Made by a program: the position numbers and the translations under genes. A model generated the notes under the pieces. It ran no database searches. It had not been told where the DNA came from and saw only the letters and a program-made list of their open reading frames with translations. A stretch of 20,000 nt of DNA from an uncultured virus (IMG/VR IMGVR_UViG_3300006674_000076) (Duplodnaviria > Heunggongvirae > Uroviricota > Caudoviricetes): the IMG/VR virus record IMGVR_UViG_3300006674_000076, positions 55,922 through 75,921 of that record; one strand, written 5' to 3'. The number at the start of each line of letters is the position of its first letter. The stretch's first letter is position 1. Below are positions 2,108-19,688 of this stretch, one piece after another.

Positions 2108-3538
2108 ATGTTAACAAGTTTAGATGTGATATCACAAGGTAAGTCTTTTCCACCTTTTACAGAACTGCCAAGGCTTGATAGATACAGGACTAATAAATTT
2201 CTATTTGATAATAAGCCACAAGCAGTATGGGTAGATTGGGCACGTAGATTAGAGGGCGACCAAGGTTTAGGCATGATGGTAGCTCTGAACTATCCACAAC
2301 GCTTGTCTAAGCTGTGGGCTGATATGCTATTTGGAGAAACACCAAGGATAACCGTTTACCCAGAAACGCAAGAGAATGTAACCGATATGACAAAGATGTT
2401 GCTTGTTTCAGACTTTTGGAACGTGTCTTATCAGGTTGCATTAGATGTTTCCAGATATGGCACTGGCATTTACAAGTTATGGTTAGACGGTGTTCCAAGG
2501 TTCCAAGCCATTCCTCCTCATATGTGGTTCCCAATAATTAATCCAAGCAATATGCATGAAGTTGTAGCACATGTTATAGCTTGGTTGTCTAAAGATACTG
2601 ATAATAGCGGAGACAATACGTTGTTGATGGAAATACATACTGCTGGCAAGATTGAATACAGAGCGTATAAAATGCACAGTGGCATTATCGGAGATGACAT
2701 TACCGATTTAGTTTACGAAAACAGAGAAGAAGAGACTGGAGTTGATATACCGCTTATATTCACAGTGCATAACATAAACGCTTCAGATAGTCCCATCGGG
2801 CAAGACGATTACGAGGCTATAGAACCTATTTTGTATGAACTTAATCAGAGGTTATCACAAATTGCAAGGATTCTAAATAAGCATTCAGACCCACATATGG
2901 CAGGACCAGAGACAGCCTTGGAGCAAGATGAAATGGGAAGATATGTATTTAGAGGTGGTGCTAAATACTTCCCATTAGAAGCTGGAGACCCGATACCACA
3001 GTATATAACTTGGGACGGTAAATTACAAGCTGCATTTGACGAGATTAAATTCTTAGTAGAACAGTTGTTTGTAATATCTGAGGTATCTCCAGTGCTGTTT
3101 GGCATGACTGAAGGTTCGCTTAGAACTGGTGCTGGACTACGTAAAGAGTTGATAGCTCCAATATCTAAATCCAACAGATTGAGAATGCGTTTTGACCCAG
3201 TGATTAGAAATATGATACTAACTGCTGGTGCGTTGTGGAACAAAGATTGGAAAGAGATAAACGTTAGCTGGCAGGAAGGGTTACCAATTAACGACCTTGA
3301 ACAAGCTCAGATTTACACGATGCTATATAAGACTGGATTGGTATCTCAGGAGACTGCTGTTAAAAAGCTGTTCTCTTTGGATAGCCAAACGCTAAACGAA
3401 GAACTATCTAAGATAAACCAATCAGCAACGGTTAAAAAGGGCGATGCTGCAACGTTGATTGATAACAAATACGGCGTAGCAGCGGAAAGTGCTCTAAATG
3501 CAGTGCAAGGTGACGGGACGTTAAACACGGAAATTTAA
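2108..3538 (+). CDS. Portal protein (SPP1/A118-like)
   Basis: 476 aa directly after terL. Portal-like segments LNYPQRLSKLWADMLFGE, GQDDYEAIEPILYELN and GLVSQETAVKKL. Confidence 0.88.
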   Translation: MLTSLDVISQGKSFPPFTELPRLDRYRTNKFLFDNKPQAVWVDWARRLEGDQGLGMMVALNYPQRLSKLWADMLFGETPRITVYPETQENVTDMTKMLLVSDFWNVSYQVALDVSRYGTGIYKLWLDGVPRFQAIPPHMWFPIINPSNMHEVVAHVIAWLSKDTDNSGDNTLLMEIHTAGKIEYRAYKMHSGIIGDDITDLVYENREEETGVDIPLIFTVHNINASDSPIGQDDYEAIEPILYELNQRLSQIARILNKHSDPHMAGPETALEQDEMGRYVFRGGAKYFPLEAGDPIPQYITWDGKLQAAFDEIKFLVEQLFVISEVSPVLFGMTEGSLRTGAGLRKELIAPISKSNRLRMRFDPVIRNMILTAGALWNKDWKEINVSWQEGLPINDLEQAQIYTMLYKTGLVSQETAVKKLFSLDSQTLNEELSKINQSATVKKGDAATLIDNKYGVAAESALNAVQGDGTLNTEI

Positions 3539-4648: not shown

Positions 4649-5629
4649 ATGGCTAATGAAATTTTTAGTAAAGATACAAGTGGAACCTTTACTAAAATTG
4701 TGCCCGGCGAAATAGTTCCCACTTTTTGGAGCGCAACATTATTAGAGGACCTTAAGAAAGAGCTGGTGTTTGGTTCTTTAACCAACGCACAGTATATTGG
4801 TGAAGTAAAATACGGTCAAACGTTAAAGATATTCAACGTATCTGGCGTAACAATTACAAATTATAGTCCAGTAGATGGATTTGGCAACGCATGGACTCCA
4901 AGCAGAGCTAAAGCTGAAGAAGTAACTACATTAACAATTGATAATGCAAAGGCATTTCAGTTCTTCATAGAGGACCTTGAAAATAGAGCAGTTCTCGTAG
5001 ACTTAATGTCTGCGATAATGAGAGAAACCACTTATAAATTAAGAGATGTTGTAGACCAGTATATCGCAGGGCTATTTGAAGCTGGAGCTACTCCATTCCT
5101 GACTGATACAGGAGGAGAGATTGCGGCACAGCTAACCAATACTTACACTTTCTACGACCTATTGGTTGACGTTGACACTTTAATGAATAAAAACAACGTT
5201 CCAAGGAATGGTCGTTGGATTGTCGTTCCACCAGAATTGAGAGCTCTACTGCTTAAGGACAATAGGTTTGTAGCCAACGCTTCTTCTCCACAAGCTTATG
5301 TATCTTTGCTGAATGGTGAAGTTGGTCAGGCGGCTGGATTTACTGTTAAGATGAGCAACAACGTTCCTACGCTTAGTGGAACATTAGATGGTTCTTATCG
5401 TTTCTACGCTGGAACTAACGATGCGTTGGCATTTGCATATGATGTAGAGAAGATTGAAACATACAGACCTGAGAACAGATTTGCAGATGCCGTTAAAGGA
5501 TTGTTTGTATACGGAGCTAAGGTAATCAGACCAGTTTGCGTTTACAAAGTTGCAGTTAAACTACCTGTTCCAGAACCAGAACAACCAGGACAAGGTAATA
5601 CTGGTGGTAATGGTGGTAATAGTTCATAA
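4649..5629 (+). CDS. Major capsid protein (HK97 fold, P22-coat-like)
   Basis: 326 aa after the scaffold. IVPTFWSATLL, LMNKNNVPRNGRWIVVPP and FADAVKGLFVYGAKVIRP are typical segments. Ends in a Pro/Gly-rich tail. Confidence 0.92.
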   Translation: MANEIFSKDTSGTFTKIVPGEIVPTFWSATLLEDLKKELVFGSLTNAQYIGEVKYGQTLKIFNVSGVTITNYSPVDGFGNAWTPSRAKAEEVTTLTIDNAKAFQFFIEDLENRAVLVDLMSAIMRETTYKLRDVVDQYIAGLFEAGATPFLTDTGGEIAAQLTNTYTFYDLLVDVDTLMNKNNVPRNGRWIVVPPELRALLLKDNRFVANASSPQAYVSLLNGEVGQAAGFTVKMSNNVPTLSGTLDGSYRFYAGTNDALAFAYDVEKIETYRPENRFADAVKGLFVYGAKVIRPVCVYKVAVKLPVPEPEQPGQGNTGGNGGNSS

Positions 5630-8313: not shown

Positions 8314-8634
8314 ATGAGTGACAGTAAAATAAGGATTGAAAACGGAGTTAGGGTAGCAGATGTTTTTGTAGGCGACAAATCTTACGTTGTTAAAGCTAAA
8401 AAAGTTAAAGAGCTAAGAGAGATTATGCAAAAGATAACCAAAGATAAAAACTTGCAGACCGAAGGTGATGCCGTAGAAAACATTGACAAACTGGTTAAGA
8501 TGTGCAAGCTAATGTTCCCAGAGATTAACCCAGACGATATAGACAATGCATACATGTCACAGCTTGTGGAATTAACTAATCTGTGGCAAGAGCTAAATTT
8601 TTCAGAGCTGGAAATGGAGGGGAGCTCTACATAG
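8314..8634 (+). CDS. Tail assembly chaperone (lambda gpG-like)
   Basis: 106 aa between tube and tape measure genes, GGAGGTG RBS, slippery site near its 3' end. Confidence 0.8.
   Translation: MSDSKIRIENGVRVADVFVGDKSYVVKAKKVKELREIMQKITKDKNLQTEGDAVENIDKLVKMCKLMFPEINPDDIDNAYMSQLVELTNLWQELNFSELEMEGSST
8595..8601 (+). other. -1 programmed ribosomal frameshift heptamer A-AAT-TTT
   Basis: X-XXY-YYZ pattern in the correct phase (CTA AAT TTT). The -1 frame stays open to 9068. Confidence 0.8.
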
Positions 8635-9068
8635 TTAATCCAACAGCCATGTCACTATCCTTGGGACTTGCTATTGAAACTGATAACAAGGGAGACATGC
8701 TAAAAGTGTTCTTCCCTTCAACGTTCTTGATTGACATTTTGCAGTATCTAAACATAACTCCATTCCAGCTTGAAGAAATGTATATGAATGATTTACTGTT
8801 TTGGGCTAAACTCGTTGCTGAGAAGAAGAGAGAAGATATGCTAGAAGAATACCAGAATAAATGGGGAGTGCTTATATCTTCAGTGATAAATAGTGGATAC
8901 AATATTGTCAGGGCTTGGGGAGCGAAAATACGCACAAGCATATCTCCAGATGATATTTATCCGTTCATAAAAGACTTAAGGTTTAGCGAAGATGAGAGAA
9001 AGAAGCTTGAGCAAAGAACAGTGGAATCAGCCATGGAGCTCGGCATACCTGCTCCGAAGGTGAAGTAA
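8601..9068 (+). CDS. Frameshift extension of the tail chaperone (gpGT-like, fusion about 251 aa)
   Basis: The ORF overlaps the chaperone in the -1 frame, lacks a good RBS at 8583, and ends flush with the tape measure ATG. Confidence 0.75.
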   Translation, partial: FRAGNGGELYIVNPTAMSLSLGLAIETDNKGDMLKVFFPSTFLIDILQYLNITPFQLEEMYMNDLLFWAKLVAEKKREDMLEEYQNKWGVLISSVINSGYNIVRAWGAKIRTSISPDDIYPFIKDLRFSEDERKKLEQRTVESAMELGIPAPKVK

Positions 9069-11669
9069 ATGGCAGATGTAATGGGCAAAGGCAGTGGCGA
9101 ACAGTTTAACATTGAAGTAACTGTTAATGTAACGCAGGCAAAAACAGCTTTAGCTGGCATCAGTAAAAGCCTTGACAGTATTACTAAGAAGGTNGGCGCA
9201 TTAACAAGCAAAATAATTGATTTGCAGTCACGTATTACTGCTTTATATTCTCAGCCAATAAATACGCAGTTAATGTTAAATGTCAGCTTTGCCTCTGCCA
9301 ATGTTGATGAAGCGTCTTTAGATGCCGCAGTCCAAAACATCGTATCACGAATTAAAGCAAGGTTGCAGTTAGCTGGAGAACAAAACCAGTTCGCTTTGCC
9401 AGTAACTCTTACTTCTAAGGGTGGCAAAGGTGCTACGAGTGTAGACACCATCGTTGCAATGACGACTGCAATGCAACAGGCTGTAACAGAGCTAACCAAA
9501 AACATACAGAATACATCGGAAAGCATAAACAAGTTAGATGAAGGCTTATCTAAAGTAACAAAGAAAGCTACGCAGCTTAAGAGAGTATCTGGCGGTAGAG
9601 GACAAGGCGGTTTATTAGATAAGGTATTCTTGTCAAGAGGCGTAACGTATTCCACTGTTTATGAAACCATATTCGGACAGCTTGGTTACTTGGTTTGGGC
9701 TGTAAGAAACGTATCACTAACTGCATCTAATATTGGTAGAACAATAAAGTCGATGGTTATTGACACGGTTGGTGTTCAGCAAAACTTCATGCTAACACTA
9801 ACAGCCATTACTGGTTCTTTAGAAAAAGCAAACGAGCTTAAGAATACCATTTGGGAGATATCCAGAACTGTTGGCGTTGATATGGCATCTCTAATGCATA
9901 CGGCTCAGCAGGCGGCTGTTTACAATATTCCTTACCAAAGGATACAAGATATGCTACAAACCATACCTGTATTTGCACAAATGGTTGGCATTGTTAGTGG
10001 TGGTGGAGCTGCTGGAACTTCGGCTATAACAAGCAGAGCAATTATGGCTATAGGTCAGATGTATGCTAAAGGTAAGGTAGTAGCAGAAGAAAGAAGGCAG
10101 CTTGCTAACATCGGCATTAACATCGTAGAACTCATAGCACAGGGAATGGGCAAACCACCAGCAGAAGTAGAAGATATGATGAGAAAAGGGCTTCTAACAA
10201 ACGTAGATGAAGTTGTAGGAATGATTATGAAAGAGCTTGGTAAGAAAACAGATGCCATCGTTAAATACATAGGAACTACCACTACTGGTGCACTTAATAT
10301 AGCCATTTCTTCGTTAAACCAGATATGGACAGCAGTCGCTGGAACAATAGCTAAAGTGCTAATGCCAGTGCTGTTAACCGTTTCTTCGGTTCTTCAAAGA
10401 ATAGCAGCTCAAGTTACTGAAACTGGTAATCTATTTTTAGCGATAAAAAATAACGTAAGCAGCTGGCTGTATAACATGATAGTAACTACATACGCTTGGC
10501 TTGTTAATATATATAATATTATCGCCAACATATTCAAAGTGGTTATAAATATACTATTTGGGACAAGTAACATATTGAGACCGATATTGATGACTGTTAT
10601 GGCTGGAACTCTGATATTTTGGATTACATCTTCAGTCCTAAAACTGATGAAACCGATGATTGGGTTCTTAATGACCATTTGGAAGCTGTCATTCTATATC
10701 AAAGAAAACTTCAAGAAGTGGATTGGTTGGATTAGTGGTGCAGCCAAGGGATTGGTTGGAGTAATAACTGGAGCTACAAGTTTAAGTGCTGTATTATCTG
10801 GAATAATGGCTAAATCCACCGTTATTGCCAATATGCTAACGCTTGGTATAGCTACTGCCATATTTGCTCTTTCACTTTATTTGGTTAACGTTGTAGATAG
10901 AACCTTAAATCGCAAGATTAACCAATCGCTTGATAAATTGGAACAACAAACAAAGAAAGCATCTGACACTACAAAAGATGCTTTTACTCAGCCAGCACAA
11001 GATACAGCCAAGATGAAGGACAACATGTCCAGCGTTGCAGATAGCACAAAAGAAATTAAGGATAACCTACAAAGCTTTGACGTAATACATGCTATAGAAC
11101 AACAAGCAGAGATGGTGGCGAACATCCCAGAAGTTCCAGAAACAATTATTGATATTGAGATGCAAGACTACTCTAAATTCTTAGACAATTTGGTAAAAGA
11201 AGCCACCAATATTGATACAAGTATTACATCGGCTGTTATTCCTAAGCTTGAAGATATGTCTATAAAGTTTGGAGATATTTGGGAAACAGTTAAAGGAGAC
11301 CTGGGAACCATATTCGATACTGTACTAAAAGGATTAGGCGATGCGTTTAAGTTTTTAATAGATGGGTTCACCAATCTTTGGAATGATATCAAACTTATGC
11401 TTGGCATAGGAAAAGACAAAGGACCTACAAGATTTATGATTCCGTATGAAGCATCTGCTGGATGGACACAGCAGTTAACAAAAAGTAGTATACCTCCACT
11501 TGTTCAAGTAGAGCCAAAGTTCACGCCAGCACCATCGTGGTATAAGCCAGGTGTAACAGGTGTAACAGAGCCTAAAATAGTGCTCGAGATAAAAGAAAGC
11601 AAGAATGAATACCCAGAGTTCATAACGAGAGAAATACTTATAAATGGTAATAGGGTTCAAATTCCCTAA
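9069..11669 (+). CDS. Tape measure protein (866 aa)
   Basis: Longest ORF, following the chaperones. Tape-measure motif AIGQMYAKGKVVAEERRQL, hydrophobic central segments, Trp/Phe-spaced helical repeats. Confidence 0.92.
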   Translation: MADVMGKGSGEQFNIEVTVNVTQAKTALAGISKSLDSITKKXGALTSKIIDLQSRITALYSQPINTQLMLNVSFASANVDEASLDAAVQNIVSRIKARLQLAGEQNQFALPVTLTSKGGKGATSVDTIVAMTTAMQQAVTELTKNIQNTSESINKLDEGLSKVTKKATQLKRVSGGRGQGGLLDKVFLSRGVTYSTVYETIFGQLGYLVWAVRNVSLTASNIGRTIKSMVIDTVGVQQNFMLTLTAITGSLEKANELKNTIWEISRTVGVDMASLMHTAQQAAVYNIPYQRIQDMLQTIPVFAQMVGIVSGGGAAGTSAITSRAIMAIGQMYAKGKVVAEERRQLANIGINIVELIAQGMGKPPAEVEDMMRKGLLTNVDEVVGMIMKELGKKTDAIVKYIGTTTTGALNIAISSLNQIWTAVAGTIAKVLMPVLLTVSSVLQRIAAQVTETGNLFLAIKNNVSSWLYNMIVTTYAWLVNIYNIIANIFKVVINILFGTSNILRPILMTVMAGTLIFWITSSVLKLMKPMIGFLMTIWKLSFYIKENFKKWIGWISGAAKGLVGVITGATSLSAVLSGIMAKSTVIANMLTLGIATAIFALSLYLVNVVDRTLNRKINQSLDKLEQQTKKASDTTKDAFTQPAQDTAKMKDNMSSVADSTKEIKDNLQSFDVIHAIEQQAEMVANIPEVPETIIDIEMQDYSKFLDNLVKEATNIDTSITSAVIPKLEDMSIKFGDIWETVKGDLGTIFDTVLKGLGDAFKFLIDGFTNLWNDIKLMLGIGKDKGPTRFMIPYEASAGWTQQLTKSSIPPLVQVEPKFTPAPSWYKPGVTGVTEPKIVLEIKESKNEYPEFITREILINGNRVQIP

Positions 11670-11683
11670 TAAGGTGATACAGA

Positions 11684-12082
11684 ATGCCAGAAAATAGAGT
11701 TATGTTAGAAATAGATGGGGCAAAGATGCCCACTCCAACGGAGATTAAATACGGCGAATATGTGTTGTCAAAAGCCGAGAGAAATCTACTAGGGAACATG
11801 GCATTCGCTTACATAAACAAGAAGATAAGGATTGATGTAAGATATGCAGCTTTAAGAGAAGATGAATTAAAAAATCTGAAATTACACCTATATTACACTA
11901 ATGCTGGAGGTAAGGGTATACATCAAGTAACAGTTAGATTTCCTTCTATGGCTGGACCAAATGACAAAAGCGTTGTAACATCGTTTAGAGCTTATGTCGG
12001 AGACTTAGAATACTCTACGCTAATACTTAAGCCAGACGGCATGTGGTATCAAGACGTTACATTCCAGTTGGTGCAATTATGA
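11684..12082 (+). CDS. Probable distal tail (Dit-like) protein
   Basis: 132 aa after the tape measure gene. IDGAKMPTP, AERNLLGNM, AYVGD and WYQDVTFQLVQL segments. Confidence 0.7.
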   Translation: MPENRVMLEIDGAKMPTPTEIKYGEYVLSKAERNLLGNMAFAYINKKIRIDVRYAALREDELKNLKLHLYYTNAGGKGIHQVTVRFPSMAGPNDKSVVTSFRAYVGDLEYSTLILKPDGMWYQDVTFQLVQL

Positions 12083-13455
12083 TAGCGATAACAGACTTTT
12101 ACGGTAGACTTTATGGCTCTGGCATATCTGAGACATTAGATGCTGATGACATCTTAGAAGCACAGTTCATGCAGAACATGTTTTGGGAAGGTAGAACTGT
12201 TGTTAAAGGCACTGGATATATCAAAATACTGGACTACGAAGAGAAATACAACATAGTTAATCCAAAGTCCAGCTTTGCCACATTAAAAAGCTACGAAGAT
12301 GTTAAGCTTGATGGCTATTTCATACTAAAAGACGAAAACGACAACACAAAGAGAATTGATTTTGATAGATGGTTTCTTAAAGAAATAGAGTTCTCTAAAG
12401 CTAATAAGGTGGCTACGCTACATTTTGAAGATGTTCTCGGTAAGTTTGATAGAATGACTTATGAGGGTTATGGATTAGTGAAGCCAGTCACAGTAAGTGG
12501 CTATTATTGGAGAATATTAAATGGTAATCCATATAAGGCATTTCCACAAATGGTTAGAAAACCATTCCTGTTTGAGGGCACGGAAGAAAATGCAGGCGGC
12601 TTGTGGTGTGCATTAAAGCAAGGAACGTATTTTAGCATTCTATCAAGCTTATCTCAATCTGTTGGAGCTGTGCTGTGGGCTAATCTTAAAGGAGAAATAA
12701 TGGCTGATTGGGTAACATTAGAAAATTTGTATATGTCAGGAGATTACATATTCCCTAATCAGCAGGTTGATGTTAACAGTGTGACAGATGTTAGAGCAGT
12801 TGTAATAGGTGGTTTAGGTATTCCTTCTTTGGCTGTAAAGCACGACTTTGACAACGGAGAAAAAGTAACCATCAGGCTTAAAGGCAGAACTCCAAGGTTT
12901 ACACAGCAACAGTTGTATAAGACAATGGAAGTAATGGTGCCAGTAGATAACAAACTGTTTATCAAAGAATATAGACCTGATAAATACAATCCTACTGGCT
13001 ACATGTTCTTAGACGTAGATGAAACTGGAGTAGCATCGTGTTATTATGGTGGAGGTGCTGTGTTTTACTACATTATTCCAACACAGGTAAACAGCTTAAT
13101 GATGTATAGTGGAACTGTAGAAGGAATAATTCCAATTACTGAAGAAGTGCCATTGAACCAGTATATAGATGAAGTTAGCACTGTAGACCCTACTTTGACT
13201 TTAGACTTTCCGATTTTGCAGAACAAAGATTTAATTGAGGCAACGTATTTAAGATACAAGAACAGTCCATTCAGAAAGAAACATATTGAGATATCTGTAA
13301 TACCAAGCAGATTAGATGAAATAGCTCCTTATCCCTGCAAGTTTAAGGTAATGAACGAAGATAACTCTGTGGCGTATGATACAATATTACATGGCATTAG
13401 ACACAATTTCAAAGAAGGCGGATACTCGTATGATGCATTTTGCGTGCTGGTGTGA
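12079..13455 (+). CDS. Probable baseplate hub / Tal-like tail protein
   Basis: ATGA-coupled start at 12079 (MIAITDF...), about 458 aa, position after Dit. Function is from synteny only. Confidence 0.6.
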   Translation: MIAITDFYGRLYGSGISETLDADDILEAQFMQNMFWEGRTVVKGTGYIKILDYEEKYNIVNPKSSFATLKSYEDVKLDGYFILKDENDNTKRIDFDRWFLKEIEFSKANKVATLHFEDVLGKFDRMTYEGYGLVKPVTVSGYYWRILNGNPYKAFPQMVRKPFLFEGTEENAGGLWCALKQGTYFSILSSLSQSVGAVLWANLKGEIMADWVTLENLYMSGDYIFPNQQVDVNSVTDVRAVVIGGLGIPSLAVKHDFDNGEKVTIRLKGRTPRFTQQQLYKTMEVMVPVDNKLFIKEYRPDKYNPTGYMFLDVDETGVASCYYGGGAVFYYIIPTQVNSLMMYSGTVEGIIPITEEVPLNQYIDEVSTVDPTLTLDFPILQNKDLIEATYLRYKNSPFRKKHIEISVIPSRLDEIAPYPCKFKVMNEDNSVAYDTILHGIRHNFKEGGYSYDAFCVLV

Positions 13456-13775
13456 TGAGTATGAGATATGAAGATAGACCGCAGTCAGAGGTAAAAGTTT
13501 TAGGAAATAACACTTTTCAATCAAAAGATGTTATTATCGGAACAGGTAGAATAATTAGAAGAGACCAATACGCTTTGGGTAAATTTAGAGTTGTAGAGTT
13601 TTACGATAACTCTGGCAAGCTTACAATGAAGAGCGAACTTGTAGGAGAACCGCCACAATACGAATACAGGATTGAAACATATTATGACGCTAATGGTCAA
13701 GTAGTGTATACGGTGCAGTATGCAAGAACATACGATGAGTATAGTAATTTGTTGTCGGAGCAAGTAATAAGATGA
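13455..13775 (+). CDS. Hypothetical tail-region protein (106 aa)
   Basis: TGATG-coupled start. Contains three YD-like turns (FYDNSG, YYDANG, TYDEYS). Confidence 0.65.
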   Translation: MSMRYEDRPQSEVKVLGNNTFQSKDVIIGTGRIIRRDQYALGKFRVVEFYDNSGKLTMKSELVGEPPQYEYRIETYYDANGQVVYTVQYARTYDEYSNLLSEQVIR

Positions 13776-14008
13776 GCAATATCTTTGACTACGTTTTATT
13801 TTGGCATGGAGATTTAAGTTCCATATTAATGGTTGGGTCTGTTCCTATCCAAGCGAATATTAAACAGAGAATTTCAATAGAGGCTATAGCACCTAATACA
13901 TCTCGTAAAGTTACAGTGCAAAGTCCAACATTAAGTTCTATACAGCAAGGCGTTAGCATTCCAGACGCAGTTTGTGAAGAAACATCTGTAAGTGTATCTC
14001 TGAGTTAG
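13772..14008 (+). CDS. Hypothetical tail-region protein (78 aa)
   Basis: ATGA-coupled to the previous gene and ends just before the GGAGG RBS of the next gene. Confidence 0.6.
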   Translation: MSNIFDYVLFWHGDLSSILMVGSVPIQANIKQRISIEAIAPNTSRKVTVQSPTLSSIQQGVSIPDAVCEETSVSVSLS

Positions 14009-14019
14009 GAGGAGATGGT

Positions 14020-15288
14020 ATGATAGTAAGAGATTATGTAAGAAATTACATGACAAACCAAGAGATAGTAAAAATAAAAGAAAAAGATGGAGACGTCAAA
14101 GGAATAGCTACTGTTCAGCTGTTTGATGCAAAAACAGGTGCTTTAGAGTTAGAAGCGAAAACGCACAATATTATATATCAGGCTGTTTATGATTGGCTAA
14201 AAAGTTATCAATGGGATAAGTTTTGTGCTGGAGCTTTTAATAAAACCAATACTTATCAAGGCTATTTTAATATGGACAATATTTATTTAACAGCATCAAC
14301 ACTTCCAGAAAACACTCCATATAACCTATTTAATTATGATGGTCCTACAATCGGCTGGGCTAATAAAGCCACGTATTCTGGTAGTGACACACAAAGAGGA
14401 ACTCCGAACTCTGCGGAAACGTATGCTAACGATGAGAAAATTCACTGGGTATTTGACTGGCCCACACATGCGGCTAACGGAACGTTTCAAACGATAATAT
14501 GGAGCAATACGATTGCTTTGACAGGAATATATGAAGGACCAATCAACGTTGGCATCAGTACTGGCTACTACGCTGGTTTTGGTCTTACGTACGATGGTTC
14601 CTATTTGTATGCCTTGAGTNNGGATGGAAANTTATATAAATTAACAACAAGTGGANCATTGATAAATGGACCAATCAACGTTGGCATTGATACTGGCACT
14701 GGCTCCTCTGGTTTTGGTCTTACGTACGATGGTTCCTATTTGTATGCCTTGAGTTATGATGGAAATTTATATAAATTAACAACAAGTGGANCATTGATAA
14801 NTGGACCAATCAACGTTGGCATTAATACTGGCACTAAATACTCTGGTTTTGGTCTTACGTACGATGGTTCCTATTTGTATGCCTTGAGTTATGATGGAAA
14901 TTTATATAAATTAACAACAAGTGGAGCATTGATAAATGGACCAATCAACGTTGGCATTAATACTGGCGCTTACGACTCTGGTTTTGGTCTTACGTACGAT
15001 GGTTCCTATTTGTATGCCTTGAGTTATAATGGAAATTTATATAAATTAACAACAAGTGGAGCATTGATAAATGGACCAATCAACGTTGGCATTAATACTG
15101 GCACTTACTACTCTGGTTTTGGTCTTGCATGTGATGGTTCGTATTTGTATGCTCTGAGTTGGGATGGGAGGCTATACAAAAATATAAATGCTTATGCTTC
15201 ATATTTCGCTCGCACTTTATTGCCATCTCCGATAACTAAAACTAATCAAAACACAATGAAAGTGATATATGAGTTTATTAGAAGCTAA
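14020..15288 (+). CDS. Baseplate/tail-tip protein with an inserted 5-repeat beta-propeller; candidate receptor-binding protein 1
   Basis: Non-repetitive N-terminus ending WVFDWPTHAANGTFQTIIW and C-terminus FARTLLPSPITKTNQNTMKVIYEF flank five 44-45 aa repeats GPINVGI...GFGLTYDGSYLYALSxDGNLYKLTTSG. Confidence 0.75.
   Translation: MIVRDYVRNYMTNQEIVKIKEKDGDVKGIATVQLFDAKTGALELEAKTHNIIYQAVYDWLKSYQWDKFCAGAFNKTNTYQGYFNMDNIYLTASTLPENTPYNLFNYDGPTIGWANKATYSGSDTQRGTPNSAETYANDEKIHWVFDWPTHAANGTFQTIIWSNTIALTGIYEGPINVGISTGYYAGFGLTYDGSYLYALSXDGXLYKLTTSGXLINGPINVGIDTGTGSSGFGLTYDGSYLYALSYDGNLYKLTTSGXLIXGPINVGINTGTKYSGFGLTYDGSYLYALSYDGNLYKLTTSGALINGPINVGINTGAYDSGFGLTYDGSYLYALSYNGNLYKLTTSGALINGPINVGINTGTYYSGFGLACDGSYLYALSWDGRLYKNINAYASYFARTLLPSPITKTNQNTMKVIYEFIRS
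14536..15180 (+). repeat. Intragenic tandem repeat, 5 units of 132-135 bp (last unit truncated)
   Basis: Units start at 14536, 14668, 14803, 14938 and 15073. Units 1-4 are nearly identical outside two loops. Unit 5 diverges at its 3' end. Confidence 0.97.
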
Positions 15289-15337
15289 AATCATATGTTA
15301 AAATTATAATTATNATAAATAGCAAAGAGGTGGTGGA

Positions 15338-15652
15338 ATGGACTTTTACATAAAACAAGGAGACACGCTACCGATATTTGCAGTTCAGCTGTTAGATGAT
15401 AATGGCACTCCGATTGACTTAACTTCTTGCACGGTTCAACTTTGGGTAGAAGGCATGGAACCTAATCCTAAGAATATGACAGTTTGCGATAATGCCGTTG
15501 TTACTTATCAATTTTCTAAAGAAGAAACTAAAAACTTTGGAACTTATTTAGCAGAAATTAGAATCATTTATAATAATGGTGATATAATAACACTACCAAC
15601 AATAGGCAGTATAAAAATACACGTGTATTACACGGTAAGTGAGGTGATATAA
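15338..15652 (+). CDS. BppU N-terminal-domain-like baseplate protein
   Basis: IKQGDTLP...LLDDNGTPIDLT...GTYLAEIRI...ITLPT pattern. Confidence 0.75.
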   Translation: MDFYIKQGDTLPIFAVQLLDDNGTPIDLTSCTVQLWVEGMEPNPKNMTVCDNAVVTYQFSKEETKNFGTYLAEIRIIYNNGDIITLPTIGSIKIHVYYTVSEVI

Positions 15653-15654
15653 TA

Positions 15655-16053
15655 ATGCCAACACAATATGCGTTAACCGATTATGCAGAAAGAAAGGCTT
15701 TAGACGCTGTATTCAATGATAGCGCAAGAACATACACAGTAGCTTTATTTACAATTACTCCTACAGAGACTACGGCAGGAACCGAAGTATCTACTGACAA
15801 CACTGGTTATGCTAGACAGACAATCAGTTTTACGGCTGCAACTACAACTTCTAACACGACTAAGGTGTCTAACGATGCCACAATTACATTTGGACCTGCA
15901 ACAGCAAGTTGGGGAACTGTAACTGGTGCTGCGGTTTTCGATGACCTTGAAAATATGTTAGTATTCGGCAATTTTGAAGGCGGACCAGTTACAGTATCCA
16001 CTGGTAACAAAGTGGAAATCGCTGTCGGCGCTCTAACTATTACATTAGACTAA
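15655..16053 (+). CDS. Conserved small virion tail/fibre-associated protein
   Basis: VALFT...GTEVS...GYARQTISF...SNDATITFGPATASWGTVT pattern seen in many phage tail modules. Confidence 0.7.
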   Translation: MPTQYALTDYAERKALDAVFNDSARTYTVALFTITPTETTAGTEVSTDNTGYARQTISFTAATTTSNTTKVSNDATITFGPATASWGTVTGAAVFDDLENMLVFGNFEGGPVTVSTGNKVEIAVGALTITLD

Positions 16054-16059
16054 TTGTAG

Positions 16060-16089
16060 TGGGGGCGCCTTGTGTGCCCCCATATATTA
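16060..16089 (+). terminator. Possible intrinsic terminator or hairpin
   Basis: TGGGGGCGC-CTTGT-GTGCCCCCA stem (one G-U pair) followed by an AT-rich, imperfect U-tract. Confidence 0.45.
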
Positions 16090-16104
16090 AGAGGTGCATG
16101 AAAT

Positions 16105-16740
16105 ATGCCGAGACTTAAAAGTTCTAATTTCGCAGTAACAGAATTGGCTGTCGACATAGACAGCACTGCTACAAGTTTTACAGTAGAAGATGCTTCCGCT
16201 TTTCCAGATACAGGACCCTTCATGATATTGGTTCACGATAACACTGGCTTAAGCGGTGTTAAAGAAATAATGGAAGTAGGAAGCATAGATAAAACCACAA
16301 AGACGTTTAGTAATGTGATACGAGGCAGAGAAGGAACTACTGCAGTTTCGCACAGTGCAGGTTCTGGCGTAGAATGTGTATGGACTGCTGGAACACATCA
16401 AGAATTAGCTGATGCTTCTGAACTAAGTACCCACGCTTCAACGACTGCAAGCATAAGCACTTTGGGACACGTAAAACACGCAGTTCTTACGGCAACGCTA
16501 GATACAACGTGGTCAGGAAGTGCCGCCCCTTATTCCCAAACTATAACGGTTAACGGGATTACATCAACGGATACTCCTATCATAGATGTGGTAATGAGTG
16601 GAACGTATGGCACTGATATTGAGAGAAGTTCCCAATGGAATTATGTTTATCGTGCTGTTACAAGTGATGGTTCTATAACGTTTTATGCAAAAACAAAGCC
16701 CACGATTGATTTACCAATACAAATAAAGGTGGTGAGATAA
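16105..16740 (+). CDS. Tail fibre / RBP-adaptor protein (211 aa)
   Basis: N-terminal ...VIRGREGTTAVSHSAG domain, fibre-repeat-like HASTTASISTLGHVK, and C-terminal WSGSAAPYSQTITVNGIT...ITFYAKTKPTIDL domain. Coupled (TAATG) to the next gene. Confidence 0.7.
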   Translation: MPRLKSSNFAVTELAVDIDSTATSFTVEDASAFPDTGPFMILVHDNTGLSGVKEIMEVGSIDKTTKTFSNVIRGREGTTAVSHSAGSGVECVWTAGTHQELADASELSTHASTTASISTLGHVKHAVLTATLDTTWSGSAAPYSQTITVNGITSTDTPIIDVVMSGTYGTDIERSSQWNYVYRAVTSDGSITFYAKTKPTIDLPIQIKVVR

Positions 16741-17987
16741 TGGGAGAAGCGATAATCAGTAGGCGTGGCGGGAAGTATGATATTGGCGNTGTAATAGCTA
16801 TGTCACACTTAGCGGAAGCAGAACCAAATGAAGTGTGGAGCAAAACAGATGTGGCGAATGGGTATGGTATAGCAGTAGACAACATAGGTAATGTGTATTG
16901 TGCACACTATGTTGGTAGTGGTAATAAAGCAATACGTAAGCTTGACAGTAATGGTAATGAAGTATGGAGTAAAACAGATGTAGCGAATGGGATTGGTATA
17001 GCAGTAGACAACATAGGTAACGTATATTGTGCGCATTATGTTAGCAGTGTTAAAGCAATACGTAAGCTTGACAGCAATGGCGATGAAGTATGGAGTAAAA
17101 CTGATGTTAGCTATGGTCATGGTATAGCAGTAGATTCTGCGGGTAATGTTTATTGTGCTCATNATGTTTGGCCTGGTGATAAAGCAATAAGAAAACTTGA
17201 TAGTAATGGCAATGAAATATGGAGTAAAACTGATGTTGGCTTTGGNTTTGGTATAGCAGTAGATTCTGCGGGTAATGTTTATTGTGCTCATGATGTTGGC
17301 ACTGGTGGTAAAGCAATAAGAAAACTTGATAGTAATGGCAACGAAATATGGAGTAAAACTGATGTTGTCAATGGTCGTGGTATAGCAGTAGACAGTTCAG
17401 GAAATGTTTATTGTGCTCATTTAGTTGGTAGTAAAGCAATAAGAAAACTTGATAGTAATGGCAACGAAATATGGAGTAAAACTGATGTTGAACGTGGTTA
17501 TGGTATAGCAGTAGATTCTGCGGGTAATGTTTATTGTGCTCATGATGTTGGAAGTGGGAGTAAAGCAATAAGGAAGTTGGACAGTACAGGCAATGAAATA
17601 TGGAGTAAAACTGATGTTGGAAGTGGTCGTGGTATAGCAGTAGATTCTGCGGGTAATGTTTATTGTGCTCATTATGTTACAAGTGGTAAAGCAATAAGAA
17701 AACTTGATAGTAATGGCAACGAAATATGGAGTAAAACTGATGTTGGCTTTGGATTTGGTATAGCAGTAGACAGTTCAGGTAATGTTTATTGTGCTCATTA
17801 TGTTGGTGATAAAGCAATAAGAAAACTTGATAGTAATGGCAATGAAATATGGAGTAAAACTGATGTTTCCAATGGTTCTGGTATAGCAGTAGATTCTGCA
17901 GGTAATGTTTATTGTGCTCATGATGTTACAAGTGGTAAAGCAATAAGAAAACTTGATGGTGCTACTTATTATAAAATCATTTCATAA
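16740..17987 (+). CDS. Nine-repeat beta-propeller protein (NHL/SBBP-like); candidate receptor-binding protein 2
   Basis: 29-aa leader, then nine 40-43 aa repeats NEIWSKTDVxxGxGIAVDSAGNVYCAHxVxxxxKAIRKLDSNG. Lies between a fibre gene and the XkdX-type genes. Confidence 0.78.
   Translation: MGEAIISRRGGKYDIGXVIAMSHLAEAEPNEVWSKTDVANGYGIAVDNIGNVYCAHYVGSGNKAIRKLDSNGNEVWSKTDVANGIGIAVDNIGNVYCAHYVSSVKAIRKLDSNGDEVWSKTDVSYGHGIAVDSAGNVYCAHXVWPGDKAIRKLDSNGNEIWSKTDVGFXFGIAVDSAGNVYCAHDVGTGGKAIRKLDSNGNEIWSKTDVVNGRGIAVDSSGNVYCAHLVGSKAIRKLDSNGNEIWSKTDVERGYGIAVDSAGNVYCAHDVGSGSKAIRKLDSTGNEIWSKTDVGSGRGIAVDSAGNVYCAHYVTSGKAIRKLDSNGNEIWSKTDVGFGFGIAVDSSGNVYCAHYVGDKAIRKLDSNGNEIWSKTDVSNGSGIAVDSAGNVYCAHDVTSGKAIRKLDGATYYKIIS
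16827..17960 (+). repeat. Intragenic tandem repeat, 9 units of 123-129 bp (last unit slightly truncated)
   Basis: Units start at 16827, 16956, 17082, 17211, 17340, 17463, 17592, 17718 and 17841. Length differences are whole codons in loop 2. Confidence 0.97.
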
Positions 17988-17999
17988 GGAGGTAATGTG

Positions 18000-18320
18000 A
18001 TGAAATTTTTAGGTGATTTACAGAAGGTAGAAGAAAATAAATACAGGGTTGGTTTGATACATAACATGCCGTTTGACCCTGTGCAAGGGTTTGGTAAAAG
18101 TGCAGAGGAACTCGAGCAGATGGGCGTATTGGTGGATGATGTTCCCGAGCCGCAGATACCAGAGGGTAAGCAGATAGCGGGGTTGTTTGTTAATCCCATT
18201 ACCAAAGAAGTATGGTACGAGTATGAAGATAAGCCACTTGACCCTGAAGAAAGGTTACAAATATTAGAGCAGATAAATGCCCAGTTGTTAGTTGAGTTGC
18301 TGGAACAGGAGGTGCTATAA
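18000..18320 (+). CDS. Probable tail fibre assembly/chaperone protein (XkdW-like position)
   Basis: AGGAGG RBS with ATG 18000. Acidic, with VWYEYEDKP then a coiled-coil C-terminus. Precedes the XkdX-family gene. Confidence 0.6.
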   Translation: MKFLGDLQKVEENKYRVGLIHNMPFDPVQGFGKSAEELEQMGVLVDDVPEPQIPEGKQIAGLFVNPITKEVWYEYEDKPLDPEERLQILEQINAQLLVELLEQEVL

Positions 18321-18747: not shown

Positions 18748-18955
18748 GTTTTCAAAGAAGGTGGTTCGTTGGATTATCATGCTTAATGCCTTGTTTGTGG
18801 TGGCAGTATTAATACTTTATTGGCACACTGGTTCTGAGCCAGCAACGTTAATAGCGAGTTGGTTTGCNTTTACCACNGGNGANTTGTGGGCATTAGCNGG
18901 AATAAAGAGAGAAGAGACAAAGAAGGGAGGGAGCGACGATGAAAGTATGCATTGA
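18734..18955 (+). CDS. Small two-TM membrane protein, putative holin
   Basis: Two hydrophobic segments and a charged C-terminal tail. Overlaps the endolysin start. Confidence 0.6.
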   Translation: MTENKFSKKVVRWIIMLNALFVVAVLILYWHTGSEPATLIASWFXFTXXXLWALXGIKREETKKGGSDDESMH

Positions 18956-19688
18956 TCCTGGGCATGGTGGCACTCAACCTGGCGCTGTAGGGTATTTCGG
19001 GACGAAAGAAAAGGATATTACGCTTCAGGTTGCTTTNCAGCTNAGAGATGTACTNAAAAATGCGGGTGTGGAAGTGGTAATGACAAGGGAGAGCGATAAA
19101 GATGTGAGAACGGCCAAGCAACCCAACGAACTGCAGGCACGCTGTGACGTAGCAAACACCGCTAATGCCGATGTTTTCATTTCAATACATTGTAATGCAT
19201 CAAATGACTCGTCGGCCCATGGGACGGAGACGTGGTACTACCCGAAAGACGCCAAAAGCAAGACTTTAGCACATTTTATCCAGACGGAGTTGGTGAAACA
19301 AATAGGTCTAAAGGACAGAGGAGTTAAACAAGGCAATTATTACGTAACACGTTATACGAAAATGCCAGCAGTGCTTGTAGAAGTGGCATTTATCAGTAAC
19401 CCTGAAGAGGAGGTATTACTGAAGAATAAGGCATTTCAGAAGAAGTGCGCTATTGGCATAGCTAATGGCGTGCTTAGTTTTTTAGGCATGTCTCTAGTAA
19501 AGGAGGGGCAGAGTATGAAAGACGTACCGCAGACGCACTGGGCGTATAAGTACATTAAAGAGCTAGACGACCTAGGGATTATTCAAGGTGACGCTAATGG
19601 AAACTTCCACCCTGACAAAGCAGCTACGAAGGCAGAAGTAGCTACAATGTTTGCAAAGTTATATGAAAAATTGAAAGGAGGGCAGTAA
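18939..19688 (+). CDS. Endolysin: N-acetylmuramoyl-L-alanine amidase (Amidase_3) with a C-terminal SLH domain
   Basis: IDPGHGG, EKD, FISIHCN and AVLVEVAFISN zinc-amidase motifs. SLH-like DVPQTHWAYKYI...GIIQG...FHPDKAATKAEVATM. Confidence 0.93.
   Translation: MKVCIDPGHGGTQPGAVGYFGTKEKDITLQVAXQXRDVXKNAGVEVVMTRESDKDVRTAKQPNELQARCDVANTANADVFISIHCNASNDSSAHGTETWYYPKDAKSKTLAHFIQTELVKQIGLKDRGVKQGNYYVTRYTKMPAVLVEVAFISNPEEEVLLKNKAFQKKCAIGIANGVLSFLGMSLVKEGQSMKDVPQTHWAYKYIKELDDLGIIQGDANGNFHPDKAATKAEVATMFAKLYEKLKGGQ

Follow-up and report, generated by a model that had tools for sequence, protein, structure and literature searches.

Analysis of a 20,000-nucleotide (nt) stretch of an uncultured tailed virus (positions 55922-75921, that is, the final 20 kb, of the 75,921-bp linear IMG/VR record IMGVR_UViG_3300006674_000076; hereafter the window, whose own numbering is used unless the contig is named) revealed two tail genes that each contain a tandem array of β-propeller blades, in which a common framework is repeated and two short loops per blade carry most of the differences. 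The products of these open reading frames (ORFs), ORF-A (14020-15288, + strand) and ORF-B (16740-17987, + strand), appear to be distal tail proteins of a siphovirus-type Bacillota phage from anaerobic digesters, and they probably function in host recognition. We propose, with a probability of about 0.65, that both are recently amplified receptor-binding propellers in which recombination homogenises the frameworks and selection diversifies the loops.

ORF-A encodes a 422-aa protein of the phrog_25763 tail-tip family (E 6.2e-30 over residues 8-420 in a profile search; no Pfam family scored above its cut-off), in which a five-blade propeller is inserted into a β-sandwich formed by the N- and C-terminal parts. 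Array A (14536-15180, + strand) comprises these five blades and was reported by Tandem Repeats Finder as 14536-15167, with a period of 135, 4.7 copies and 92% matches. Its units of 132 or 135 bp start in frame at 14536 (132 bp), 14668, 14803, 14938 and 15073, and the diverged blade 5 continues into the C-terminal strands. Blades 1-4 are identical, except at one synonymous site, outside a set of variable codons: 8 and 11-14 in the connection between the last strand and the next blade (D-A loop), and 30, 31 and 33 in the connection between strands 2 and 3 (B-C loop). With N-bearing codons excluded from the codon tables, 8 of the 45 codons hold 31 of the 34 pairwise nt differences among blades 1-4, and the frameworks differ at 3 of 642 compared nt. 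The proportions of synonymous (pS) and non-synonymous (pN) differences, calculated according to Nei-Gojobori, are 0.019 and 0 in the framework and 0.016 and 0.319 in the loops, although loop columns were picked in both arrays after inspection of the data, which inflates loop pN.

A loop pN so far above the framework pS excludes neutral drift or relaxed constraint alone in array A, and relaxed constraint was rejected as the sole cause of loop variation. The same values bear on a simpler history, in which the blades were amplified recently, no process continued afterwards and unconstrained loops drifted. We regard this as distinctly improbable, given that drift cannot yield such loop divergence between frameworks this similar, and that codons differing at all three nt adjoin 111 identical framework nt.

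ORF-B encodes a 415-aa protein in which an SBBP β-propeller comes after a short adaptor at the N-terminus. It matched Pfam SBBP (PF06739; 90.7 bits against a cut-off of 20.5, E 5.3e-26), with matches to propeller families only, and phrog_8401 (E 1.6e-82). Array B (16827-17957, + strand) consists of nine SBBP blades (Tandem Repeats Finder: 16827-17957, period 129, 8.9 copies, 82% matches), with unit starts at 16827, 16956, 17082, 17211, 17340, 17463, 17592, 17718 and 17841 and unit lengths of 123-129 bp. Blades 3-9 are 86-92% alike, and blades 1-2, which show 75-79% nt identity to blade 7, appear to be older. The variable codons are 10, 11 and 13 in loop 1, 28 and 30-33 in loop 2, which varies in length (2-4 codons), and 19-20 in a turn predicted to lie on the opposite face. 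Among blades 3-9, 232 of the 317 pairwise nt differences fall within 10 of the 43 codons, and the frameworks differ at 85 of 2,007 nt (pS 0.142, pN 0.016), with a loop pN of 0.483 and pS of 0.307; over all nine blades the corresponding values are 0.318 and 0.022 in the framework and 0.490 and 0.393 in the loops. The raised loop pS would fit loops that are older than the framework surrounding them. At the hypervariable positions of 76 SBBP blades from the window and its relatives, the residues are mainly S (19%), G (17%), Y (14%), D (10%), N (8%) and R (6%). No homology between ORF-A and ORF-B was detectable by BLASTP (E 0.33); a very distant common origin of their propeller blades would still be conceivable.

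Structure prediction supports a propeller fold for both proteins. The AlphaFold2 model of ORF-A (56-row alignment; predicted local distance difference test, pLDDT, 91.6; predicted template modelling score, pTM, 0.86) folds the N-terminal 170 residues and the C-terminal strands into a β-sandwich, and its propeller (residues ~170-395) matches the five-bladed glutaminyl cyclase 3mbr (Z 19.9, root-mean-square deviation 3.1, 208 residues) and the host-recognition device of phi11 (5efv; Z 11.9, 200 residues, 14% identity). The ORF-B model, predicted from the single sequence and of moderate confidence (pLDDT 67.6, pTM 0.63), contains 36 strands, four per blade, and its best PDB match is the designed nine-blade protein Cake9 (6tjh; TM-score 0.86 on the target). 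The top fold matches in BFVD were solely uncharacterised siphovirus proteins. In both models, the variable codons map to the D-A and B-C connections and the remaining two blade connections are conserved turns. Because alternate connections of a four-strand meander share a side, both variable loops are predicted to lie on one face of the propeller, a placement based on strand order and not on measured positions; this is the face with which propellers usually bind.

Most of what the original prediction, made from the sequence alone, had claimed for the two proteins is thus borne out: two arrays with different units, of five and nine blades; two propellers from unrelated families; and two loops per blade that carry most of the differences, differ mainly at non-synonymous positions and, in ORF-B blades, are rich in S, G, Y, D, N and R. 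The structural check that it had suggested, on whether both loops lie on one face, agrees by strand order. The comparison of loop and framework substitutions that it had suggested gave a loop pN/pS of 20 in blades 1-4 of array A and 1.6 in blades 3-9 of array B, as against 0-0.11 in the frameworks of both arrays. Its claim that the frameworks are almost invariant even at synonymous sites stands for blades 1-4 of array A, does not extend to blade 5 and holds only in part for array B.

A scan of viral contigs revealed 19 loci with relatives of ORF-B and 17 with relatives of ORF-A, mostly from one metagenome. The window and 18 loci together provide 76 ORF-B blades with one common framework, of which the 62 without ambiguous residues represent 45 loop-1 types, 55 loop-2 types and 61 combinations, with a loop pair that is unique in 61 of the 62. 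All 13 recurring loop-1 types are paired with at least two different loop-2 types, which indicates that loops re-assort between blades. Frameworks agree more closely within contigs (nt identity 0.917, 156 pairs) than between contigs (0.841, 2,694 pairs), a gap that was reached in none of 1,000 label shuffles, and more distant ORF-B loci have framework substitutions common to all blades of a locus. This within-contig likeness and the shared lineage substitutions are what concerted evolution or separate amplification leaves behind. The design is also found in isolate genomes of Paenibacillus (P0098) and Clostridium oryzae (P0101, with two identical blades), which encode matching SBBP tail fibres, and some SBBP homologues bear Phage_fiber_2 or tail-collar Pfam domains. 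Within ORF-B itself, blades 1-2 (16827-17081), the N-terminus and the downstream gene resemble one related contig (L008; 96-99% nt identity), and for blades 3-9 (17082-17957) and the C-terminal tail the likeness is to the common pool (L004, L005, L012); with this L008-like start and pool-type remainder, ORF-B has either recombined naturally or been joined as a chimera during assembly.

The ORF-A family includes 91 homologues, with 40 loci in Bacillota genomes and metagenome-assembled genomes, and is frequent in prophage regions of Clostridium, Anoxybacillus, Thermoanaerobacterium and other Bacillota. When an adjacent-blade identity below 0.4 is taken as diverged, the 92 proteins comprise 79 with diverged blades, 7 intermediates and 6 that are highly repetitive. 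The repetitive members form at least three lineages: that of the window, one with 45-residue blades (L028-L030, L034, L036) and one with 41-residue blades (P0042, P0054, P0039). Variable residues occur at the same two loops in all three and the frameworks are lineage-specific; at least three ORF-A lineages thus appear to have been re-amplified separately. Blades of L028 and L029 contain a central stretch of ~30 nt of the window type within flanks of their own lineage, and these mosaics point to short-tract exchange between blade types. Their borders coincide with just ~18-20 identical nt common to both lineages, which we infer to be too short for path-switching by a long-k assembler. Among closer relatives (L023-L027), flanking genes are 92-99% identical to those of the window and the N-terminal domain is 97-99% identical, but the loops are different, and the complete ORF-A genes have three blades, not five. 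In one of these (L026, a 53-kb contig), the ORF-A orthologue ends early at 208 aa and two more blades follow in another frame (~8600-9133), a break that could reflect either a frameshift or an assembly error.

The predominance of diverged blades in this family would be in keeping with amplification that was not followed by any continuing process, as would the description of recently amplified propellers as common in all kingdoms, viruses included, in the text of PMC9218822. Such a history does not, however, account for the re-assorted loops, the mosaic blades or the lineage-specific changes common to the blades of one protein.

The original prediction had envisaged a dedicated diversification system, with recombination plus selection as the fallback driver. 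No match to the reverse transcriptase (RT) profile RVT_1 (PF00078; control positive in 4 of 14 genomes) was obtained at E<=1 in the whole 75,921-bp contig or in any of five related records, which may be incomplete, and resolvase (PF00239) and tyrosine-recombinase (PF00589) profiles gave no match at E<=1 in the whole contig. No template was found when one unit per array was compared with the whole contig by blastn (word size 7): the array copies alone were recovered, and other matches were of 31 nt or less. No inverted repeats flank array A or array B between 13400 and 18400; those present in this interval are AT-rich palindromes within the array A unit or near 15300, and one 22-nt pair with 82% match (15580/16910). 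A diversity-generating retroelement (DGR) was rejected because RT and template repeat were not found in the contig and no RT was found in the five related records, and an invertase shufflon because there was neither a resolvase or tyrosine-recombinase match nor an array-flanking inverted repeat. The search of the rest of the contig that the original prediction had suggested, for an RT and for a further copy of either unit, thus yielded neither, and the evidence favours its fallback. The blade reshuffling that it had put forward is seen in the re-assorted loops and mosaic blades, and the comparison of orthologues that it had called for shows loops that differ strongly between relatives with highly similar flanks.

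We consider it very improbable that a DGR or another site-directed mutator, located in unassembled phage DNA or in the host, rewrites the loop codons in every blade. A pattern resembling the NNY codons expected from AAY template codons is seen at codons 11, 28 and 31, which end in T in 72/75, 66/70 and 68/73 blades, respectively, and vary in positions 1-2; the residue spectrum rich in Y, S, G, N, D and R and the raised loop pS of array B could likewise reflect targeting. However, framework codons of this genome, with 38% GC, also usually end in T, as at codons 24 (76/76 blades) and 8 (73/76), and codons 10, 13 and 30 of the array B blades vary at all three positions. Known DGRs rewrite one terminal variable region and are not known to act on each repeat of an array, which further argues against targeting here. 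The CheckV completeness of 86% for the record could suggest that a mutator gene was missed, but this value is misleading because the record strings two related genome equivalents together (structural module at contig 15851-29930 vs 55256-69434; 78-95% nt identity). The contig contains three lysis cassettes (~1194-2382, 37566-38432 and the contig end), and the window's phage is therefore covered from one cassette to the next. The early regions of the two genome equivalents are mostly unrelated, and the two either lie in tandem or were joined when the assembly crossed from one strain into another.

A mechanism is proposed where single blades were recently re-amplified into both propellers. Homologous recombination, acting within each array and also among related phages that co-occur, would keep the frameworks near-identical through events that include unequal exchange and short-tract gene conversion. 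The phage's own RecT, exonuclease and RusA genes plausibly assist: those in the contig, for a RecT-like annealing protein, an exonuclease and a RusA-like resolvase, are ordinary phage recombination genes whose products could help such similar repeats to recombine. The two variable loops, D-A and B-C, would escape homogenisation and be kept different by diversifying selection for the binding of variable host surface structures, and the outcome would be a population-wide pool of blades open to re-assortment. We infer selection as the cause and recombination, including RecT, as the homogenising force. A receptor-binding role is suggested by the gene order after the tape-measure gene, by fused homologues and by the structural match to phi11. 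It is possible, as a tentative extension of this mechanism, that the blades are exchangeable cassettes, with frameworks kept as recombination substrates and with a population-wide library of loop pairs continually re-assorted in two tail proteins at the same time by RecT-type annealing, both inside an array and among co-infecting relatives. Such cassettes may provide RT-independent, combinatorial host-range change that has arisen several times in Bacillota prophage tail proteins, and would, if real, be analogous to the assembly of lamprey variable lymphocyte receptors (VLRs) or to the shuffling of fungal NLR repeats.

A number of observations weigh against recombining, selected propellers, and many of them concern the assembly. 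The window contains 19 Ns, which the original prediction had passed over; of these, six lie in array A (14620, 14621, 14631, 14656, 14791 and 14801, at sites that differ in relatives or sister blades) and two in array B (17163, in hypervariable codon 28, and 17246, at the third position of codon 12); the whole contig contains 46, which are clustered. Over the 76 ORF-B blades, 20 of the 31 N-bearing codons fall in hypervariable columns, which make up 10 of the 43 columns (binomial p 1.2e-6). The Ns leave the consensus ambiguous at these positions and indicate mixed reads, which reflect either real heterogeneity or the piling together of reads from sister blades. Logan contigs of four runs, compared over 14802-18100 and thus beyond blades 1-2 of array A, fragment the arrays: run X1 gave 748 pieces, 373 of them with two placements and none spanning an array. 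Many related contigs terminate inside arrays, seemingly complete ORF-B genes have 2 to 9 blades, and blade counts of 2, 3, 4 and 8 occur in the normally five-blade ORF-A family, where collapse or expansion is probably at least partly responsible. Given the fragmented Logan contigs and the Ns, the assembly could have produced the blade number, the blade order and some of the loop pairings, and the printed number and order, which come from a short-read metagenome assembly, are unverified. Other points concern the interpretation: the post hoc choice of loop columns; the placement of both loops on one face from strand order; an array B loop pS above the framework pS, which is also compatible with local hypermutation; and the weakness of RecT-type genes as evidence, since they are widespread in phages.

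Taken further, the assembly observations could mean that the arrays are chimeras of co-occurring strains and that a single phage has no such blade diversity, which we judge to be unlikely. Beyond the Ns, the truncated contigs, the multiply placeable Logan pieces and the range of blade counts, this explanation could draw on the joining of two related genomes in the contig, on the mixed make-up of ORF-B and on the stretches of identity between successive loop-1 sites in array A, which reach ~120 nt and thus approach read length; short-read assemblies of comparable repeats in fungal NLR genes are described as unreliable in the text of PMC12222747. It is opposed by the presence of the design in the two isolate genomes and in dozens of independent contigs and the runs of 14 studies, and by the mosaic junctions of L028 and L029, with their short shared borders. 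Furthermore, a scrambled order would still leave one framework with many loop variants. All eight array A variants listed from other metagenomes fall in loop-1 codons 12-13 (14838, 14839, 14971, 14974 twice, 14975, 15106 and 15107). Further clusters of Ns occur at 18868-18898 (five Ns, just upstream of the endolysin gene), at 19037-19055 (three Ns, inside that gene) and elsewhere in the contig, for example at 1310-1481, 50121-50183 and 54114-54121; these clusters outside the arrays are probably strain-variable sites.

Several known systems resemble these arrays in part. The het-e/het-d and HNWD genes of Podospora anserina encode fungal NLR proteins with WD40 repeats of high internal conservation. 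Concerted evolution is described as keeping the blades of such repeats near-identical, with combinations that differ between alleles (PMC12222747, as far as its text covers this). The phage arrays share with them the uniform frameworks and the hypervariable sites with an excess of non-synonymous changes. In contrast, the fungal proteins are intracellular immune receptors of a eukaryote with a NACHT domain and two seven-blade propellers of WD40 blades, whereas those of the phage are virion tail proteins with SBBP and unnamed-family blades and, by Pfam, no NLR architecture; by this analogy, the phage arrays would work like fungal NLR repeats without being members of that group. Afanasieva et al. 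reportedly worked in 2019 on recently amplified, highly repetitive β-propellers. The text of Pereira and Lupas 2022 describes blades that are near-identical even at the nt level and close homologues that were amplified independently, reports that one family can span identical to diverged blades, and also expresses doubt about assemblies (PMC9218822). Its main text mentions viruses as a kingdom, does not contain the words "phage", "hypervariable" or "SBBP" and does not describe the loop hypervariability of a phage tail. Arrays A and B share with these propellers the near-identical nt sequence of the blades, the diverged homologues and the independent amplification.

DGRs diversify phage receptor-binding proteins such as Mtd of Bordetella phage BPP-1, and a paper on tentaclins is said to treat their action on such proteins. 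A constant scaffold with a hypervariable phage-tail surface and a spectrum rich in Y, S, G, N and D is common to DGR targets and to the arrays; the arrays differ in that no RT or template was found in the searches described above, and in that variation occurs in every blade of two arrays and not in one terminal region. The nearest known phage analogue is provided by the T4-type gp38 adhesins, in which conserved glycine-rich motifs, proposed as recombination sites, lie between hypervariable segments. Here too, repeated conserved motifs of a phage adhesin frame hypervariable loops, but gp38 has a polyglycine-sandwich fold with short motifs, whereas whole blades of 40-45 residues are identical at the nt level in the present case. 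Phage phi11, a siphovirus of the Gram-positive host Staphylococcus with a five-bladed propeller in its receptor-binding protein, shares this propeller with ORF-A at the Z score given above and differs in its remaining architecture and, at 14% identity, in sequence. We found no account of an identical-framework, variable-loop regime in phage tail proteins in the full-text literature, coverage of which was incomplete.

Changes in phage host range are usually credited to swaps of whole receptor-binding domains or to DGR mutagenesis of one terminal region. The regime here is different, as two propeller families of one tail combine identical frameworks with variable loops, a regime known from fungal and bacterial immune receptors, and as two unrelated propellers and several lineages of one family converge on one design. 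If long reads confirm the arrays, they would point to a third, recombination-driven route to receptor diversity and would offer a natural scaffold in which each blade has two loops open to design. Such repeat genes cannot be trusted in short-read viral catalogues.

ORF calling and PHROG/Pfam profiles identify the window as a siphovirus-type late module with genes for the large terminase (886-2106), the portal (2108-3538), the major head protein (4649-5629) and the tape-measure protein (9069-11669), followed by a run of tail-tip genes and, further downstream, an endolysin (18939-19688) and a holin (from 19690). The SLH domain of the endolysin points to a host with an S-layer or a pyruvylated cell-wall polymer; an S-layer-type host is suggested because the endolysin pairs Amidase_3 with SLH, and this agrees with the Bacillota hosts of the ORF-A homologues. 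No megablast match was obtained for 11684-18320 among 50,697 GenBank phage records. Between 0.23 and 0.50 of sampled words were contained in 20 runs from 14 studies, which derive from anaerobic digester, activated sludge, wastewater and biogas fermenter material, one study being labelled just "metagenome". The other half of the contig encodes two ORF-A paralogues, both built of diverged blades, and lacks ORF-B, whose place (contig 35158-37185; L002 16158-18185) is occupied by proteins of 496 aa and 675 aa. The latter is a degenerate repeat protein with many similarly worded short units and had no PHROG match.

Three ORFs lie between ORF-A and ORF-B, all on the + strand. The first (104 aa, 15338-15652) shows weak BppU_N similarity (E 0.0013, below the Pfam cut-off) and is 75% conserved at the nt level in the other half of the contig, and the second (132 aa, 15655-16053) belongs to Pfam Gp80, the podophage GP4 fibre I family (E 1.5e-20, 74.3 bits against a cut-off of 27). 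The third (211 aa, 16105-16740) has a tail-fibre-like N-terminus (phrog_8469 tail fibre, 7.7e-06) and a stop codon that overlaps the start of ORF-B. It is likely to be a shaft or adaptor that holds ORF-B, and in P0098 an N-terminus of this kind is fused to SBBP blades.

The final 173 nt of the 211-aa ORF and the initial 47 nt of ORF-B form a 220-bp junction module (16567-16786, + strand), which corresponds to the C-terminal 57 codons of the former and the opening 16 codons of the latter. By blastn, it is 94-100% identical to sequences in L004, L005, L008, L009 and L014, whose neighbouring sequence is otherwise unlike that of the window, and Logan contigs of runs X1, X3 and X5 part from the window just before 16567 and just after 16786. 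Blade frameworks of the window and related contigs are likewise 91-93% identical, although flanking genes are only 67-76% identical or cannot be aligned. Such similar blades and junctions amid unlike flanks, together with the Logan divergence at the same borders, suggest that the propeller moves between phages as a module, and the junction is probably both an adaptor interface and a recombination border for these swaps. Directly upstream of ORF-A, a 111-aa ORF (13440-13775) shows a weak MORN-repeat-like match (E 3.4e-4, sub-cut-off) and is 94-99% conserved at the nt level in L023-L027.

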